DNA of 52,253 nucleotides from a virus (IMGVR_UViG_3300011008_000006), one strand, 5' to 3'. Numbered from the stretch's first letter, positions 1 through 42,266 are shown. Numbers and translations are program-made. Notes: generated by a model not told the origin, from the sequence alone.

Positions 1-15
1 TTTTTTTTATGTACT

Positions 16-41
16 ACTTTAGTGCTTTAGTGTACTAAAGT
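16..41. repeat. 26-bp tripartite motif copy 1 (ACTTTAGT GCTTTAGT GT ACTAAAGT), followed 8 nt later by GGCCGGCC
   Basis: Two direct 8-mers plus one inverted 8-mer; 7 further copies within 1-2,870. Confidence 0.9.
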
Positions 42-111
42 ATTTGCCCGGCCGGCCCGTTTATGATAGATCCGGCCCGCTATATGCCATTCTAAGCCAT
101 TTTTATTTTAT

Positions 112-133
112 CCATCAACTGGCCGGTTGATGG
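112..133. other. Hairpin CCATCAAC-tggccg-GTTGATGG
   Basis: Perfect 8-bp stem, extendable by ATTTTAT/ATAAAAT flanks (~103-146). Confidence 0.7.
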
Positions 134-191
134 GACTAGATAAAATCGGCCACAATTAAAAAGTCAAAGAAAGTCAAACTGGCCGGCCGGC

Positions 192-217
192 GCTTTCGTG
201 CGTTAAAGTGTTAAAGA
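192..217. repeat. Tripartite motif copy 2, reverse orientation (GCTTTCGT GC GTTAAAGT GTTAAAGA), preceded by GGCCGGCCGG at 181-190
   Basis: Reverse complement matches the copy-1 geometry. Confidence 0.8.
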
Positions 218-249
218 AAAATTTTTTTTGAAAAAATTTTCAAAAAGTG

Positions 250-278
250 TTGACAAGTTTGCGGGGGTGTGGTATACT
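250..278 (+). promoter_or_regulatory. sigma70/sigmaA early promoter TTGACA-17-TATACT, extended -10, A/T-tract UP element
   Basis: TTGACA 250-255, TATACT 273-278, TG at 270. Confidence 0.9.
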
Positions 279-333
279 TATATCGTCAAGAGGGGGAAGG
301 AAAACCCCAAATCAAACCAGAAAGGGTAAAGAA

Positions 334-495
334 ATGAAGTATTGGATGAATGAGAAAACTCAAAGAATCGCTATTCTGTCTCATAAGCCCACTGATGAAC
401 CCTGGGCGCGTGTGAGTGGTGAATGGGTAGAAATTACTAAGGACGAATATGATACCATGCTTGTTTATCAGCAGTGCCTTGTAAGTCTTGCTTAA
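334..495 (+). CDS. Small hypothetical early protein (53 aa)
   Basis: ATG 334 after a purine-rich SD (GAAAGGG), TAA stop, downstream of a consensus promoter. Confidence 0.75.
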   Translation: MKYWMNEKTQRIAILSHKPTDEPWARVSGEWVEITKDEYDTMLVYQQCLVSLA

Positions 496-506
496 GAATT
501 AAAGGG

Positions 507-535
507 CTGACAAGTTAAAAAGTCCATGATATAAC
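507..535 (+). promoter_or_regulatory. Probable early promoter CTGACA-17-TATAAC
   Basis: Near-consensus boxes, 17-bp spacer, directly upstream of ORF 564. Confidence 0.6.
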
Positions 536-563
536 AAGAATACAAGAAAGGAAAAAGAAGATC

Positions 564-719
564 ATGAAGACTGTGGAATTGATTAAGTGCGGCAAAGGTT
601 ACTATGTAAACGTTCGCTATAATGGTCGTACAGTAATGAATGAGTACTATAAGACTAATAAAGCGGCAAATGAGCGGATCAAAGTGTTGAAGGGAGAAGG
701 CTATCAGATCAATAAGTAA
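564..719 (+). CDS. Small basic hypothetical early protein (51 aa, MKTVELIKCGKGYYVNVRYNG...), not in the ORF track
   Basis: ATG 564 after AAAGGAAAAAG, TAA 717-719, followed by a hairpin and U-tract. Confidence 0.75.
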   Translation: MKTVELIKCGKGYYVNVRYNGRTVMNEYYKTNKAANERIKVLKGEGYQINK

Positions 720-740
720 GGGCAAAAGTCCCTTATTTTT
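717..740 (+). terminator. Probable intrinsic terminator TAAGGG-caaaagt-CCCTTA-TTTTT
   Basis: Short stem plus T-run after the stop codon. Confidence 0.55.
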
Positions 741-747
741 TATCTAT

Positions 748-773
748 ACTTTAATACTTTAATGTATTAAAGT
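748..773. repeat. Tripartite motif copy 3 (ACTTTAAT ACTTTAAT GT ATTAAAGT), GGCCGGCC at 781-788
   Basis: Same 8+8+2+8 geometry. Confidence 0.9.
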
Positions 774-832
774 GTTGCCTGGCCGGCCAGAGCGAAATGT
801 TAAAAATGGTAGAATATTTACCGAATTCGCGA

Positions 833-861
833 TTGTGTTTTGCCGGTATTTGATATATAAT
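833..861 (+). promoter_or_regulatory. Probable early promoter TTGTGT-17-TATAAT
   Basis: TATAAT 856-861; degenerate -35 at the correct spacing; CCGG in the spacer. Confidence 0.55.
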
Positions 862-892
862 ATAAGTGAAGAAAGGGAAGGGAGAAAAAACA

Positions 893-1069
893 ATGACGAA
901 GAAAATTAACACAAAAGAAGAATACCAGAAAGCTATGGAAGAATTGGAAGTGCGTGAATTTTACGCCAATATGTGCGACGACTACACAGTTACTTGCCGC
1001 GAGATGGAGAAGATCAGAATTGATCGTCACGAGATCACCACGCAAGCGAAAGAAAAAAACTTGCTGTAA
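893..1069 (+). CDS. Small hypothetical early protein (58 aa, helical)
   Basis: ATG 893 after the GGGAAGGGAG SD; TAA stop. Confidence 0.75.
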   Translation: MTKKINTKEEYQKAMEELEVREFYANMCDDYTVTCREMEKIRIDRHEITTQAKEKNLL

Positions 1070-1073
1070 AATA

Positions 1074-1102
1074 TTGACAAAGCCGGTCAAGTGTGCTATA
1101 CC
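1074..1102 (+). promoter_or_regulatory. Promoter TTGACA-17-TATACC with no convincing downstream ORF
   Basis: Consensus -35, TG-extended -10. Confidence 0.7.
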
Positions 1103-1130
1103 GTATATAAAAAGAAGAAAAGAGTCTAAT

Positions 1131-1156
1131 ATTTTAGTGCTTTACTGCACTAAAGT
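1131..1156. repeat. Tripartite motif copy 4 (ATTTTAGT GCTTTACT GC ACTAAAGT), GGCCGGTCC 8 nt later
   Basis: Same geometry. Confidence 0.85.
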
Positions 1157-1256
1157 ATTAATCAGGCCGGTCCGAAGAGAATATGACTGGCCGGCCCGTG
1201 AGTTAGTTATGACTAACTGTCGTAAAAAATTTTTTTTGAAAAATAAAAAAAAGGTG

Positions 1257-1285
1257 TTGACAAATGCTCCGGCATGTACTATAAT
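1257..1285 (+). promoter_or_regulatory. Consensus early promoter TTGACA-17-TATAAT with UP element
   Basis: Perfect boxes; A/T tracts at 1224-1252. Confidence 0.92.
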
Positions 1286-1337
1286 AAGCATGTAAGAAAG
1301 GGAAGGGAAACCCACCAAACCAGAAAGGGCGCCAACA

Positions 1338-1541
1338 ATGAAGAATTACACCACCATCAAGCTCACCGAAACTTGTGCCAATTTTATGGAAGGCCTGACC
1401 GAGACCACCCGCACCATTGTCACCACCGACCGCGATGGATGGCCTACCACCAAGACCGAACGGGTTTACAAGGACGCGGATGGCAAGATCTGGATTGTGC
1501 GGACAGATCGGGATGGCTGGCTTTACAAGTACGAAGCCTAA
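1338..1541 (+). CDS. Small hypothetical early protein (67 aa) with TDRDGW repeated twice
   Basis: SD GAAAGGG, GC3-rich codons, downstream terminator. Confidence 0.85.
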   Translation: MKNYTTIKLTETCANFMEGLTETTRTIVTTDRDGWPTTKTERVYKDADGKIWIVRTDRDGWLYKYEA

Positions 1542-1551
1542 AATCAAAAAC

Positions 1552-1583
1552 AGGGCGGGAGAAATCCCGCCCTAAAATTTTTT
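1552..1583 (+). terminator. Intrinsic terminator AGGGCGGGA-gaaa-TCCCGCCCT
   Basis: Perfect 9-bp stem with GAAA loop, T-run nearby. Confidence 0.85.
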
Positions 1584-1593
1584 CTAAAAAGTA

Positions 1594-1622
1594 TTGACAG
1601 ATACGTGCTGATCTGGTATAAT
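1594..1622 (+). promoter_or_regulatory. Consensus promoter TTGACA-17-TATAAT with no SD-supported ORF
   Basis: Perfect boxes, TG-extended -10. Confidence 0.85.
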
Positions 1623-1667
1623 AAAGATGCTCCGAGAGGCTGGCAGGACAGGGGGAAGTGCGCCCTT

Positions 1668-1703
1668 ATACTTTAATGCATTAAAGTATGAAAGTGCTAA
1701 AAA
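1668..1703. repeat. Tripartite motif copy 5, four half-sites; contains the perfect 22-bp palindrome ATACTTTAATGCATTAAAGTAT (1668-1689)
   Basis: ACTTTAAT GC ATTAAAGT ATGAAAGT GCTAAAAA. Confidence 0.9.
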
Positions 1704-1730
1704 TTTTTTTCACTTTTTCAAAAAAAGAGG

Positions 1731-1759
1731 TTGACAAATTGCCCGGCATCGTTTATAAT
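1731..1759 (+). promoter_or_regulatory. Consensus early promoter TTGACA-17-TATAAT
   Basis: Perfect boxes; upstream A/T tracts. Confidence 0.92.
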
Positions 1760-1816
1760 AAATAATGTCAGGAGGGCAAAGAAAGCCACCGGCAGAAAGA
1801 AGGAGGAAGAAAAAAA

Positions 1817-2038
1817 ATGACTATCCGCGAATATTGGGCCGCCATGGAAGCCGCCGCCACTATCGACGAAGTGGATGCAATCATGGAACACGAAACTAAA
1901 ATCTATGGGTTGTCTCAGATTGATTTCGACGCGTTCTGTGAATGGGCTGACTGTAATGGTATTGACTTAACTGCCTGTGATCCTGATTCTGATATTTCTG
2001 TTCTGATTCTGTGGTCTTGGGACATGTGCGGCGAATAA
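1817..2038 (+). CDS. Small acidic hypothetical early protein (73 aa)
   Basis: SD AAGGAGG; very Asp/Glu-rich. Confidence 0.85.
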   Translation: MTIREYWAAMEAAATIDEVDAIMEHETKIYGLSQIDFDAFCEWADCNGIDLTACDPDSDISVLILWSWDMCGE

Positions 2039-2078
2039 TCACCACACAAAAAAATTTGAAAAAAATCAAAAAAAGGTA

Positions 2079-2107
2079 TTGACAAGCACGCCGGTAAGGT
2101 GTATAAT
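2079..2107 (+). promoter_or_regulatory. Consensus early promoter TTGACA-17-TATAAT
   Basis: Perfect boxes; UP-like A tracts. Confidence 0.92.
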
Positions 2108-2138
2108 AAAGTCACAAAGAACGAAGGAGGCCACCACC

Positions 2139-2594
2139 ATGACGCTGTTCGACCTGATTACCGCTTACGCCGCCTGCACCGCCGCCCATACTTACATCCT
2201 CGGTTTCATCTTCGGCGGCAACCTCTACCGCGTGACCCTGACTTTCGCGGAATTGACCGCCTACGTTCGGCAGGGTCGGACGTCCTCCAAGAAGGGTGCT
2301 GTCCTCCAAGCGCGCATCCGCGTAAACAGCAAGCAAGCCGCCGAACTGGTGGAAAGCGGAAAAGCCCTTTTGATGGGAACCGCCGAAATGCTGGAAGATG
2401 ACAAGCACAACAGGGGCGAAATCTTCGAGAAGATTATCACTGAAACCCTGACCGGGAAAACTTGGAAGAAGGACAGCACCCCGTTTTGGAAAGCTGGTGA
2501 TATCGAACTCAACGGCGAACAAATCCAAATCAAACTAAGCGAAGCAGAACTCACAAATGAGAAAGCAATCACCGCCGCCCTCGCCGCGGCGTGA
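2139..2594 (+). CDS. Hypothetical early protein (151 aa), possible PD-(D/E)xK-like nuclease fold
   Basis: SD AAGGAGG at 2124-2130; motifs NRGEIFE...GDIELNGEQIQIK. Confidence 0.8.
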   Translation: MTLFDLITAYAACTAAHTYILGFIFGGNLYRVTLTFAELTAYVRQGRTSSKKGAVLQARIRVNSKQAAELVESGKALLMGTAEMLEDDKHNRGEIFEKIITETLTGKTWKKDSTPFWKAGDIELNGEQIQIKLSEAELTNEKAITAALAAA

Positions 2595-2653
2595 TTCTTT
2601 TTTTATCCCATTATATTTGATCAAAGGTAATTTTTGCCCAACGTCGGCCTGAT

Positions 2654-2679
2654 GCTTTAACACTTTAGTGTGCTAAAGT
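2654..2679. repeat. Tripartite motif copy 6 (GCTTTAAC ACTTTAGT GT GCTAAAGT)
   Basis: Same geometry. Confidence 0.9.
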
Positions 2680-2728
2680 GGTTGCTACTGTTATATCCCG
2701 CGGTATCAAACAAAGGGCCACCGTCAAG

Positions 2729-2754
2729 ATTTTAATACTTTAATGTGTTAAAGT
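2729..2754. repeat. Tripartite motif copy 7 (ATTTTAAT ACTTTAAT GT GTTAAAGT)
   Basis: Same geometry. Confidence 0.88.
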
Positions 2755-2842
2755 GGGCGGTATTTGAAATAAGGGCACCAGGCCGAAAAAAAACACTTCT
2801 CATCGTTGGGGCGCTTGATTTTTTGAAATAGATACACCCCCC

Positions 2843-2868
2843 ACTTCAACGCTTTAGTGTGCTAAAGT
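2843..2868. repeat. Tripartite motif copy 8 (ACTTCAAC GCTTTAGT GT GCTAAAGT)
   Basis: Same geometry. Confidence 0.85.
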
Positions 2869-3028
2869 CCAGGCTCCCAGCAGGTCCCAGCATTTTTGAC
2901 TACCCCGGGGGTATGATGTAGGATTTGGCCAGGTTATTACCATATATGACATGGGCGCTCCCCAATTCCCACCGACCCAAAATTTTTCAAAAATAATAAA
3001 AAACCGAAAAAATTCCCTATTCTAATAC

Positions 3029-3058
3029 TTGACAAATAGAAGCCTTATGTGTTATAAT
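3029..3058 (+). promoter_or_regulatory. sigmaA-type promoter TTGACA-18-TATAAT heading the packaging/virion operon
   Basis: Perfect boxes, A-tract UP element at ~2980-3013. Confidence 0.8.
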
Positions 3059-3085
3059 AAAATCAGAAGGTCGGAGGTGACCGCA

Positions 3086-4378
3086 TTGAAAAAGAAATAC
3101 TCATTAGACTATGAAATTGAACGCGATATTGACCGCGTTCAAGCAATCAAAGATATACTTGATCAACTTGAAACTGACCCATCTCCGCTTGAATTAGAGT
3201 AGATGGGTTCTTATATTTTATATGGAAAAGACGAAAATGGTTTAAATTCGGTATAGCGTGGCGAAACAACAGATGGTAATAAGAGATATGGTAGCTATAA
3301 AAAAATGGACGACAAATTACTTTCGTTGGATGAAATGTTAGAAAATCCAATGGCAGATTAGCAATCTTTAAAACCAACCTCATAGCGCAGCGCCTATACT
3401 AAAAAGAAACCAGTAATTGCGCGCCCAAAATATGACAAAAAAACTGGCGAAATGATTGACCCAGGCGACAGCGACATTCCCGGCATGACCGAGCTATGGG
3501 AACGTATTGATCATTTAGAGCATATTGTAGCAATAAACGAAGGAAAAATTTCACCCGATGAAAATACAACTCTTCTAAAAGATAGTTATCGTTTATATCA
3601 ATTAAAACATATGTTAATAGATGTGCGCCGTCATCAATATTATCTTAAAGATTCTTACAAACCTACTTTACATTTCCAAGCAGTAGATCATCCTAAGGCC
3701 GCCTTCTATGATTGGACATGCGATTCCTTCTATTGGATTTCGCGCGAAGAATGGTAGTGCCGCATTAATAATACGCTCTTATCTTCCATATCAAAAAATA
3801 TTGAAGATTATGAAGTGCGCGAGGACGGTATGGTAAAATGGATAGTAAGGCGCCATACCTTTAACTGGGAAGACCCGCTTCATGTTCGCGCCCTTATAAA
3901 TAATTATGATTTATTATATGATTAGTTTAAAGAAAAATTAGATACCTACGGTCGCACCCTAATATTTGATTTCGATCGCTATCGCGCGATGGCAAACTTT
4001 ACTGAATTGCGCGATTACATATTAAATTAGAAACTAGCGCGCGTTCAATATGCCGACATCATTAAAAATTTATAGATTAAATATGGCATTAAATATAATG
4101 AAAATCACTTATGTACTATTCTTTCGCGCGAGATACCCGAAAAAATTGCATAGGCCGCGCAAAAATATCATCTTCTATTAGATACACCAGAAGAAAATAA
4201 AAAATTATGTAAAAGTTGCGGCCGCATGCTTCCAATCCATGAACTATTTTTTGTACATAATAGAAATCGCAAAGATGGTTTCTCTGGCACCTGTAAAGAA
4301 TGTGAGAAAAGAAAGAGAATAGAAAAAGGAGGTTAGGGCTTAAATGATAGAAGAACAAAAGAAGCGCAAATGCATTAA
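3086..4378 (+). CDS. Hypothetical protein (430 aa with TAG=Gln), C-terminal CxxC...CxxC Zn finger; possible regulator
   Basis: TTG start after GGAGGTG; frame interrupted only by TAG (first at 3200) until TAA 4376; CKSC...CKEC. Confidence 0.8.
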
Positions 4379-5288
4379 ATGTTAGTAGGAACGTCCAATC
4401 TCATTTTTCGCGCGCACACCTAGTAAATTTTTCCCTGGCCGCAGCCTAATATGTACGCCATGCCTTGAGAAAATGGTGCCGCAAGATAATTTGGGTGAAG
4501 TAGATAGACTTTGCCGCTACCTTGATGTACCATTTGACCTAAATAAATGGACGCAACTTTATAAAGTGCATGGGGAGCATACTTTAACAGCCTATTTTAA
4601 TATGCTTCTGGACGACCACTACGAAGCTCTTCAATGGAGCGATGAAAACGAAAGATGGCGAATAGCTAGAAATGAAGGCACCATTGATGAAGAAATAAAA
4701 GAATTAAATGATGCAAAACTTAAGAGGTTAAAAAAAGAGTGGTCGCCTACTTACGACAAAGATGAACTATTATTCCTTGAAGATTTTTATAATAGTATCG
4801 TCGCATCATAGAACGTTTCTACTCCAATTCTTCAGCACTACGCGCGCGACCTCTGCGAAATTGAATTACGTATTAAGAAGGGGTTGCGTAACGGGGTGGA
4901 TATAAAAAAAGATATGGACGCCCGCGACAATATTATAAAGATAGCCAAATTTGAGGCTTCTAATGCAAAATCCGCGGCGGACTTTGAGTCTGTTGGTGAA
5001 CTTATGGTTTATTATGGTAAAAAAGGATGGCATCCAAAATGGCACATAGAACCTTCCGATTCTATTGATTTCTTAATGCAAAATATTCAAAATTACTTAA
5101 AGCGTTTAGTGCAAAATGAAGGCAACTTTGCTGAATAGGTTGAAAACGCGCGTGAACGCTATAATATGACCGAGCGCCTTGAAGAAATTGAAAATGAAGC
5201 AGTTGAATTTGACGAAACTGCAAACATTGAATATGAAGGTGAGGACGAATTTACTGGCGATTTAGGAAGTGATGACGATGGAGAATGA
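4344..5288 (+). CDS. Putative terminase small subunit-like protein (314 aa, TAG=Gln), N-terminal Zn finger
   Basis: SD AAGGAGG; CIKC...CTPC; acidic tail; immediately upstream of TerL. Confidence 0.6.
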
Positions 5289-41292: not shown

Positions 41293-42266
41293 CAGCCACC
41301 ACCGCCCGAATTTTTATTATATCCAAATTCTTGTGTCTTAAAAAACTCTATATAATATTTTTCTAAATCGTTTAATTCGTCTTTATCGCAATAAATAATT
41401 GGCTCAATAGTCCAGTTCCAAAATCCTGATTTCCAGATTTCATGGTGCACAGCTTGGTCGGCTATTGTTTTTATTCCAATACTTGATTTGAAATGATCTG
41501 CTATACGCTTCTTTATATTGGTACTTTTACCAATATAACTTTTACCACTTTCTAAATTTGTTATTTTATAAATACCAGGTTCGTCTTTTATATTTGCCCG
41601 TTTGAATGTTTCATCAATATAAGGTTTTACGTATTCCGACCAGACAAGTTTATTGATAATATCAGGATGTTGTACTTTCTATGAAACAGTGGTTACTAAG
41701 AAATTAATATCTTCTTTATATTCATCAGGTACTTGTATAGTATAAAATAAACGCTCTTGTTTATCTTTTTCATATTGCTAAATAGGTTCTAATAAACCTT
41801 CATAGCGTTTTAACTATCTACTTGTTTCTTCTGTAATGTCAGCCTATGTTTTTTTCCACTATTCAATTATTTCTTTCGCATTGGCTTCCGCTGCGTTTAT
41901 TCGTTCTTGTGCCTAATTAGTAAAGTTCTGTATTCGTAGGTCTAATGCTTCTTTTCGCTATTCTTCCTACTAAGCAAAATCATCATCTAAAATAAGCTAC
42001 CGTCGTACTTTTTGCTAATTGAAATAATTTTCTAATTCTTCTGTTCTATCTCTTACAGAATTATTATATCTTTCAATTGCTTGGTCGGATAAAGACTATA
42101 ATTCATTTATATCTTCTGCTAAATTATTACGCTATTGTATTAATAAAGCAACTTCTGTATCTAATTTATTTCTTTCACTAACATCTAAGGCTTGTTTTTC
42201 CTTATATTTTAGGAATAAATAAACAATAATTATTACTAATATTATAGAAACTACCCAACCACCCAT
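41292..42266 (-). CDS. Membrane-anchored coiled-coil GIY-YIG nuclease (324 aa, 13 TAG=Gln), absent from the ORF track
   Basis: N-terminal hydrophobic helix WVVSIILVIIIVYLFL; heptad coil; GIYKITN...KSYIGKSTNIKKRI...LE...GYN. Confidence 0.85.

Follow-up and report, generated by a model that had tools for sequence, protein, structure and literature searches.

The early region of the virus IMGVR_UViG_3300011008_000006 carries a recurrent tripartite DNA motif, which raises the question of what protein recognizes it and to what effect. The stretch analyzed – referred to here as the window, 52,253 nucleotides in length – is the reverse strand of bases 16,856-69,108 in an 83,939-b IMG/VR record with a CheckV completeness of 44%. 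A preliminary description of the window had reported eight copies of the motif between positions 16 and 2868, each with two direct half-sites (RCTTTARY), a 2-bp spacer and an inverted half-site in an 8+8+2+8 bp arrangement, and did not recognize it from any described system. Here, we identify the motif as a tandem form of the operator of the histidine repressor HisR, consider its probable binder, and weigh the roles that an array of such sites could play in infection.

The core of the motif, CTTTANYRYRNTAAAG (CTTTA-RYRYRY-TAAAG, with R a purine and Y a pyrimidine), was scanned for with no more than one mismatch, using the shuffled window as the null. Eight cores spanning 25-2867 were found, starting at 25, 193, 757, 1140, 1671, 2663, 2738 and 2852; these recover all eight of the copies described, in their 8+8+2+8 geometry, and a ninth match with one mismatch at 41381 is unrelated. 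Shuffling gives an expectation of 0.44 core matches, and none of 100 shuffles attained nine. Bare half-sites are not enriched (39 observed and 31 expected window-wide), and the signal therefore lies in the composite. As had been described, copies follow terminators or precede promoters, or else fall in non-coding DNA, here the stretch 2595-3028; this stretch separates p151 (2139-2594, forward strand), the last early gene of the rightward arm, from the sigma70-type consensus promoter (3029-3058, forward) of a sigma-factor-like gene (3086-4378, forward). Confinement of the motif to the early array holds in that the remainder of the record has only chance-level one-mismatch matches, with none for a reversed-pattern control, but the array runs past position 1 of the window, with three further perfect cores 722, 2245 and 2357 b upstream of it and one degenerate copy in the oppositely transcribed early arm. 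The record thus has 11 good copies and one degenerate copy within approximately 5 kb of the early region, or nine strict cores (11 relaxed) in 5.2 kb.

Eight of the 11 good copies are forward (half-half-NN-inverted half) and three are reversed, namely those 722 b upstream of the window and at 193 and 1671. The fifth copy, at 1670-1703, is where it had been placed, but the second is not the only reversed copy in the window; the fifth is reversed also, and consists of a core and two degenerate inverted half-sites. The third half-site scores 7-8 of 8 in 10 of the 11 copies. The description of the spacer as GT/GC needs amending: all six inner bases are strictly R-Y-R-Y-R-Y, and in a set of 215 sites drawn from 113 loci the two central bases read GC or GT/AC, with AT in only three.

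HisR is a TrpR-family repressor with a 20-bp palindromic site, cacTTTAnnnnnnTAAAgtg, in Firmicutes, Actinobacteria and Synergistetes (Ashniev et al., BMC Genomics 2022, PMC9413887). The same study reports that in vitro binding of Ruminococcus gnavus HisR to its own site – the one site tested – required L-histidine; it covers the palindrome alone, with no 8-bp tandem half-sites and no occurrence of the word 'phage' (PMC9413887). When compared with the published consensus and with single published sites, the 11 phage sites agree at 11-14 of the 14 fixed positions of cacTTTAnnnnnnTAAAgtg, and two sites at all 14. The symmetric CTTTA...TAAAG form is of the Clostridia type, Bacillaceae sites having mostly ATTAG on the left.

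The tripartite format also occurs in bacteria. As a 24-base pattern with 15 fixed and nine two-fold positions it is expected by our own arithmetic to have about two chance matches in 596 Gb, and a few-fold more in A/T-rich DNA, yet it is present in 103 stretches of GTDB genome contigs, mostly from Clostridia, with some from Planococcus, Sporosarcina and others. At these bacterial loci 16 oriented sites are located 0-20 b past the -10 of a TTGACA/TATAAT promoter, and where the context is truly chromosomal, a consensus promoter precedes the site, which starts 8-12 b beyond the -10 and has a gene directly behind it. These genes encode HisZ-like proteins (PF13393), the histidinol dehydrogenase HisD (PF00815), a 100-residue Trp_repressor protein (PF01371), a Na_H_antiporter-family permease (yuiF-like), and family-3 solute-binding proteins (hisX-like); two of the chromosomal Trp_repressor genes have a second core between -35 and -10. 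This gene set is the published HisR regulon (PMC9413887). That the phage motif is this operator in tandem form – the palindrome Y-R-CTTTA-RYRYRY-TAAAG-Y-R with at least one extra half-site in an 8-bp register – is well supported by sequence comparison, and the motif is thus not one lacking a described counterpart, since it fits the published consensus.

Seven contigs assigned to Segatella copri are also matched by the tripartite pattern. Three (L132, L155 and L161) share one conserved site, TCTTTAGT-ACTTTAGC-AT-ACTAAAGA, at what seems to be the same locus, and the others are L183, L193, L210 and L219; Bacteroidota are outside the published HisR survey (PMC9413887).

The phage and bacterial sites share a palindrome (cacTTTA-N6-TAAAgtg in the Firmicute operators; PMC9413887) and, at chromosomal his promoters, the tripartite form, but they differ sharply in placement. 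Bacterial HisR sites are on or just after histidine-gene promoters in genomes that also encode hisR, whereas the phage has about a dozen in 5 kb, none of them on a promoter, with neither histidine genes nearby nor hisR. Among 236 oriented tripartite phage sites, not one has a strict-pattern promoter within 30 b upstream, and none lies on a promoter or start site, such that the placement typical of an operator is absent. Judged by sequence and position, the phage sites are operator sequences used outside the HisR regulon. A role as a repressor array for early genes, one of the functions first suggested, is unlikely for the same reason, given that none of the 236 copies overlaps a promoter or start under the strict promoter pattern.

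The sites within the window vary in their match to the consensus and in their surroundings. The forward site at 16-41 (half-half-GT-inverted half; 20-mer at 23-42, 11 of 14 fixed positions) sits between the preceding cassette's terminator, which it directly follows, and a GC box at 46-59, and the forward site at 748-773 (13 of 14) is immediately after a terminator at 714-738. The reversed site at 192-217, with a core at 193-208 and an inverted half-site at 210-217 (12 of 14), abuts an A/T-rich upstream element, its core starting 57 b upstream of the -35 at 250; the second reversed site, at 1670-1703, has its core at 1671-1686 (12 of 14), starting 60 b upstream of the -35 at 1731. The forward site at 1131-1156 (11 of 14) has a C at inner position 6 of the core. 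Three forward sites occupy the p151/sigma-like spacer: that at 2654-2679 contains the 20-mer CACTTTAGTGTGCTAAAGTG, which agrees at all 14 positions; that at 2729-2754 (13 of 14) is identical over 2736-2755 to the published Clostridium sp. JCC hisXYZ* site at 19 of 20 bases; and the last, at 2843-2868 (12 of 14), has a core starting 177 b upstream of the -35 of the sigma-like gene promoter.

Two of these sites follow strong promoter-like sequences that have no plausible gene. The site at 1131-1156 lies 28 b beyond the -10 of one at 1074-1102, and the site at 1670-1703 lies 47 b beyond the -10 of another at 1594-1622; the former was read by eye, is absent from both promoter scans, and is outside the count of 236. 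These promoters could yield short RNAs, or histidine-gated read-through into the next cassette.

An inverted repeat can also act as a folded strand, and the dyad of 5-7 pairs would suit a hairpin in RNA or single-stranded DNA – part of a terminator, a small RNA, or an N4-type hairpin promoter – with the two copies behind gene-less promoter-like sites being open to transcription. The variation among the 215 sites speaks otherwise. At pair 6-11 the states AT, GC, AC and GT are seen 60, 45, 45 and 65 times (p = 0.78), the two sides of the dyad varying independently; at pair 7-10 the commonest state is a C-A mismatch; and the pair statistics are independent or anti-correlated. Pairing is possible for CTTTA/TAAAG alone, the majority of copies come after terminators, and an Rfam scan of window positions 1-3200 with E up to 1 gave only sub-threshold chance matches, with no family above threshold. 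As there is no covariation across the dyad, the motif is best read as a protein site in double-stranded DNA, and the hairpin was rejected as extremely improbable. The earlier proposal of a binding site for an oligomeric protein gains from this, and from the presence of the same tripartite site at operator positions in bacterial chromosomes.

Exact-pattern scans of IMG/VR gave more than 116 contigs among the matches listed, in which two groups of phages stand out. The first comprises large relatives, in which the sigma-like gene (with identity down to 22%), phrog_3314, TerL and portal genes adjoin the motif in about 50 loci by tblastn, along with early genes coding for p151, p103, a HAD-like 148-residue protein and a 229-residue protein. 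Close relatives always have a cluster of 1-7 cores located 140-650 b upstream of the sigma-like gene, with seven units in approximately 215 b in locus L295 and six in L305. The number of sites ahead of this gene (3, 6, 7 and 1) and their spacing are not conserved, and whole records have 1-9 strict cores that are always clustered, with none for the reversed-pattern control. The motif is thus neither at a background rate nor lacking positional conservation, the relatives keeping clusters between p151 and the sigma-like gene. The second group comprises small phi29-like podophages of 11-15 kb with a DNA polymerase of the protein-primed type, an encapsidation ATPase, a major head protein and an upper collar connector. 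Ten of these (L232, L243, L244, L260, L282, L284, L286, L312, L102 and L303) have inverted terminal repeats of 98-559 b, each carrying a HisR-type core, in most cases 4-94 b from the two genome ends, with 1-8 additional half-sites extending inward from the core and stacks of up to eight half-sites. The two groups have no protein in common at a tblastn E of 1e-4, though both carry the site.

Which protein binds these sites in infected cells? No match to PF01371 was found in this 44%-complete record or in three relatives that are 94-100% complete (181, 176 and 181 kb), and a hidden Markov model built from five chromosomal HisR proteins found none in any phage locus, including the complete phi29-like genomes. 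A phage-encoded HisR was therefore set aside, there being no recognizable homologue by PF01371 or by our own model, which leaves room for a different binder. Because the phages have no recognizable repressor gene of this kind and the two groups share no protein at the tblastn threshold used, host HisR with histidine is the simplest binder, and on these sequence grounds it is the most likely one.

The alternative is that a phage-encoded protein of another fold binds the motif, its HisR likeness being mimicry or coincidence and the array being phage-specific together with its GC boxes and AGTTAG dyads. The motif does accompany GGCCGG boxes and AGTTAG-N6-CTAACT dyads that have no host counterpart; there are many small early proteins without a family, including three paralogues that look from their sequences like winged-helix proteins; and p151 has a confident structural model with no solved relative. 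Against this, the same site is present in two phage groups with no common protein, complete podophage genomes of 12-15 kb have few spare genes, and the sites match both the fixed positions of the host operator and its 8-bp tandem format, so that convergence on both would need a reason. We consider a phage-encoded binder improbable.

If host HisR is the binder, the array may act mainly as a sink. In an infected Clostridia cell, HisR loaded with L-histidine would bind the phage sites as tandem dimers, and the incoming and then replicated genomes would draw it off the one or two chromosomal operator cores; its loss would de-repress host histidine synthesis and uptake, feeding phage protein production. 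A dimer shifted by 8 b would meet one good half-site and one partial half-site within the R-Y tract, and this may explain why the tract is constrained. Superimposed on this could be a local, histidine-dependent effect of the three reversed copies and of the sites clustered before the sigma-like gene. That no phage site lies on a promoter or start site, together with stacks of up to seven units in relatives, points to a role that is mainly that of a sink. Host genomes have only 1-2 strict cores per 3.3-4.2 Mb, so each phage genome offers several-fold the sites of the host chromosome and replication multiplies them; titration would follow physically, if HisR binds. The variation among relatives in site number (1-9) and spacing was also counted in favor of a sink, as were the two CtsR-operator look-alikes that share the intergenic modules of these sites. 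On balance, we find it somewhat probable that the array consists of HisR operators bound by host HisR and serves mainly to de-repress host histidine genes.

Several considerations weigh against this interpretation. The presence of hisR in the host of this phage is an assumption, and about half of the genomes in the published survey have an autoregulated hisR (PMC9413887), which would buffer titration. De-repression would be pointless if the phage shuts off host transcription, and one complete relative, with direct terminal repeats, has a single strict site, at 100 kb. Five host genomes offer no counterpart of either the GC boxes or the AGTTAG-N6-CTAACT dyads, so that part of the module is phage-specific. 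Moreover, some of the placement looks non-random, a feature that titration alone would not require: each of the three reversed copies has a -35 hexamer 48-60 b downstream of its start, close relatives retain a cluster before the sigma-like gene, the phi29-like sites keep one orientation and are usually 4-94 b from the ends, and the gene-less promoter-like sites at 1074-1102 and 1594-1622 read into HisR-type sites, where a roadblock role is possible.

Given these placements, the principal competing explanation is that host HisR with histidine binds the same sites for local control, so that development of the phage follows the supply of amino acids. In this phage, HisR could act on early promoters close to the sites and on the sigma-like switch gene, and in the phi29-like phages it could help or block protein-primed initiation at the ends. 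Use of host factors by phages and viruses has precedents in Spo0A in phi29 and in NFI and Oct-1 in the terminal repeats of adenovirus. In addition to the three reversed copies, the conserved cluster 140-650 b ahead of the sigma-like gene, and the two gene-less promoter-like sites, relatives show an excess of reversed copies in the interval 40-150 b upstream of promoters (40 of about 170), and in the ten contigs with inverted terminal repeats the tandem half-sites always point inward from the site near both ends. However, no site lies over a -35, -10 or start, where TrpR-family repressors act; only three of approximately 35 early promoters have an upstream copy; relatives differ in how many sites precede the sigma-like gene and in how these are spaced; and the common orientation in the small phages is possibly just inherited. 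No activator role is known for the TrpR family, and the characterized functions of TrpR sites are all repressive (PMC13762905). Local control is thus a serious possibility but a rather doubtful one as the main function; the two roles are not mutually exclusive, and we favor the sink.

Other functions can be weighed with the same data. Origin iterons, as first suggested, are unlikely, as the copies are spread over 5.2 kb among the cassettes, number 1-9 in relatives, and have no adjoining replication gene. Recombination or mobility sites that shuffle the early cassettes, another of the initial candidates, would account for copies at cassette boundaries, for the inverted p151 paralogues that bracket the motif-bearing region, and for cassette content that varies among relatives; two direct elements, a short spacer and an inverted element also form what we take to be an FRT- or hix-invertase-like layout. 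But no recombinase is found among about 30 neighboring proteins using Pfam and PHROGs in this incomplete record, stacks of 5-8 half-sites are unlike crossover sites, and the chromosomal copies at his-gene promoters, which have an established and different meaning, would be left unexplained; we regard this explanation as very unlikely. A genome-end or packaging site in the large phages was also considered and rejected, the loci that seemed to start at the motif being mostly internal pieces of longer contigs and the only strict site of the complete relative being at 100 kb.

The tandem format has its closest parallel in TrpR of Escherichia coli, which like HisR is a small helix-turn-helix dimer with an amino-acid co-repressor and repeated half-sites, its dimers stacking in an 8-bp register; the TrpR half-site is GNACT, in contrast to CTTTA here. 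The TrpR family is known for tandem dimer binding, and Lawson and Carey (Nature 1993) are reported to have described binding of TrpR to a tandem operator in this 8-bp register. To our knowledge TrpR sites are all promoter-proximal, and we know of no phage arrays of them. Phages that read host state without a regulator gene of their own are familiar, as with the Spo0A boxes and parS of phi29 and the LexA boxes of GIL01. The HisR-type arrays are likewise sites for a host regulator in phages without the regulator gene, but they differ in that HisR senses an amino acid, the sites are far more numerous, and promoters are avoided, which fits titration at least as well as sensing. The E. coli datA locus is a chromosomal titration locus for DnaA and acts on the cell's own initiator; by analogy, both would be clusters of high-affinity sites holding a regulator off its targets, datA being chromosomal and the array phage-borne.

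We found no description of a phage-borne sink for a metabolic repressor in the literature searched. The motif itself has already been described, but arrays of it in phage genomes appear neither in the HisR paper nor in that literature. New here are the tandem half-site format, which genuine host operators also have, the differing placement of phage and chromosomal sites, the lack of a repressor gene in complete relatives, the copies in phi29-like terminal repeats, and the adjoining CtsR look-alikes discussed below. An anonymous repeat thereby becomes a testable link between host and phage, for which the missing binder is most likely a host metabolic repressor, and the published operator is extended from a simple palindrome to a tandem, TrpR-like format. 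Were the sink to prove true, it would represent a protein-free viral means of switching on host amino-acid supply and a new class of non-coding auxiliary element in viromes; were a sensor to prove true, the development of phages in Clostridia of the gut and rumen would be tied to how much histidine is available. In either event the Clostridia-type motif is a host clue, pointing to a HisR-bearing Firmicute.

HisR may not be the only host repressor with sites in this region. The CtsR operator is a direct heptad repeat, RGTCAAA-N3-RGTCAAA, upstream of ctsR and clp genes, and a sequence matching this pattern, AGTCAAAGAAAGTCAAA, occurs twice in the phage, at 162-178 (forward) and approximately 2.1 kb upstream of window position 1 (record C1 ~71,200), in the same intergenic modules as HisR-type sites. 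The identical 17-mer is present in three Clostridium genomes, and in the host genomes searched the repeat is directly upstream of ctsR (PF05848 and PF17727) in two and of a Clp-type AAA+ gene in a third. The phage therefore appears to carry a second type of host-repressor site beside the HisR sites, as a CtsR look-alike. A perfect TGTTTCACGTGAAACA, which we take to be parS-like, occurs in the phi29-like contig L245 (~215-230) and the large-phage locus L115 (~2,130), and CGAACATATGTTCG, presumably LexA- or Cheo-box-like, is beside HisR-type sites in L040 and L115. Together, the CtsR, Cheo-box-like and parS-like sequences fit phages that collect sites for host regulators. A broader proposal is that phages infecting Clostridia of the gut and rumen use operator sponges, and no dedicated protein, to reprogram host regulons – HisR sites for histidine supply and CtsR sites for the Clp/chaperone regulon – and that unrelated lineages acquired these sponges independently; this is possible, though we advance it only tentatively from these sequence patterns.

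The surroundings of the array are themselves unusual. The early region, approximately 16 kb, consists of two divergent arms that together contain about 35 very small cassettes in the standard code, every one with a consensus TTGACA-17-TATAAT promoter and a common leader; the early promoters and Shine-Dalgarno sites are, by sequence, of the Firmicute type. From 3086 on, the genes require TAG as a sense codon, beginning with the sigma-factor-like gene, which has a C-terminal zinc ribbon, and continuing with terminase, portal and other virion proteins, one frame extending to 4,915 residues. Nearly all of the early proteins are without a match in Pfam and PHROGs, a scan for transfer RNAs in the window and its flanks found none, and among contigs of sequencing runs only those of the probable source sample contain the stretch, with no RNA data set listed among the matches.

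A paralogue of p151 in inverted orientation (L005 2828-3289) begins the leftward arm, and the motif-bearing region thus lies between the two p151 genes. This early protein is conserved, with homologues at about 30 loci, and its N-x-G-E, K-D, G-D and Q-x-K residues are invariant. The AlphaFold model of p151 has a pLDDT (predicted local distance difference test score) of 95.9, yet no solved structure matches it, with a best E of 0.12 against the PDB with Foldseek and a best Z of 3.6 with VIA-align; from these searches with the predicted model no fold is assignable, which does not make the fold new.

The GC boxes adjoin most copies of the motif. Of the 35 GGCCGG sites in the 84-kb record, 32 are in the early region, mostly beside a hairpin-like dyad or a motif copy. 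The boxes, often CGGGCCGGCCCG, are at 46-59 (GCCCGGCCGGCCCG), 181-192, 781-788, 1165-1172 and 1189-1196, with approximately 25 more in the leftward early arm (L005), where a variable hairpin-like dyad precedes every box and the next -35 comes 20-39 b after the box. The AGTTAG-N6-CTAACT dyad, which has the same 5+6+5 layout as the HisR core, is present in ten copies, all in the early region, with one at 1201-1218 and nine upstream of the window (L005); in the phi29-like contigs L245 and L270 the dyad is found again, 12-35 b from the ends. It was considered as a second host operator and rejected, its one match in five host genomes being the same as for the reversed control. About a dozen TTGTAAYA repeats with an 11-b period occupy a non-coding segment between the early arms, approximately 2,470-2,650 b upstream of window position 1 (L005 ~2,560-2,770). 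In many leftward cassettes a single copy separates the GC box from the -35, and the similar GTTACAAAATTGTAAC is upstream of an early promoter in the phi29-like L260.

Finally, the spacer between p151 and the sigma-like gene has a layout that is fixed in close relatives (window 2603-2622 and 2870-2990; L295 3560-3990; L305 reverse 4390-4800). A terminator is followed by TATATTTGATCAAA(G/T), the HisR array, a conserved CCCAGCAG...CCCCGGGG stretch, and then the promoter, and the conserved stretch could be a candidate small RNA or packaging-related site beside the terminase genes.

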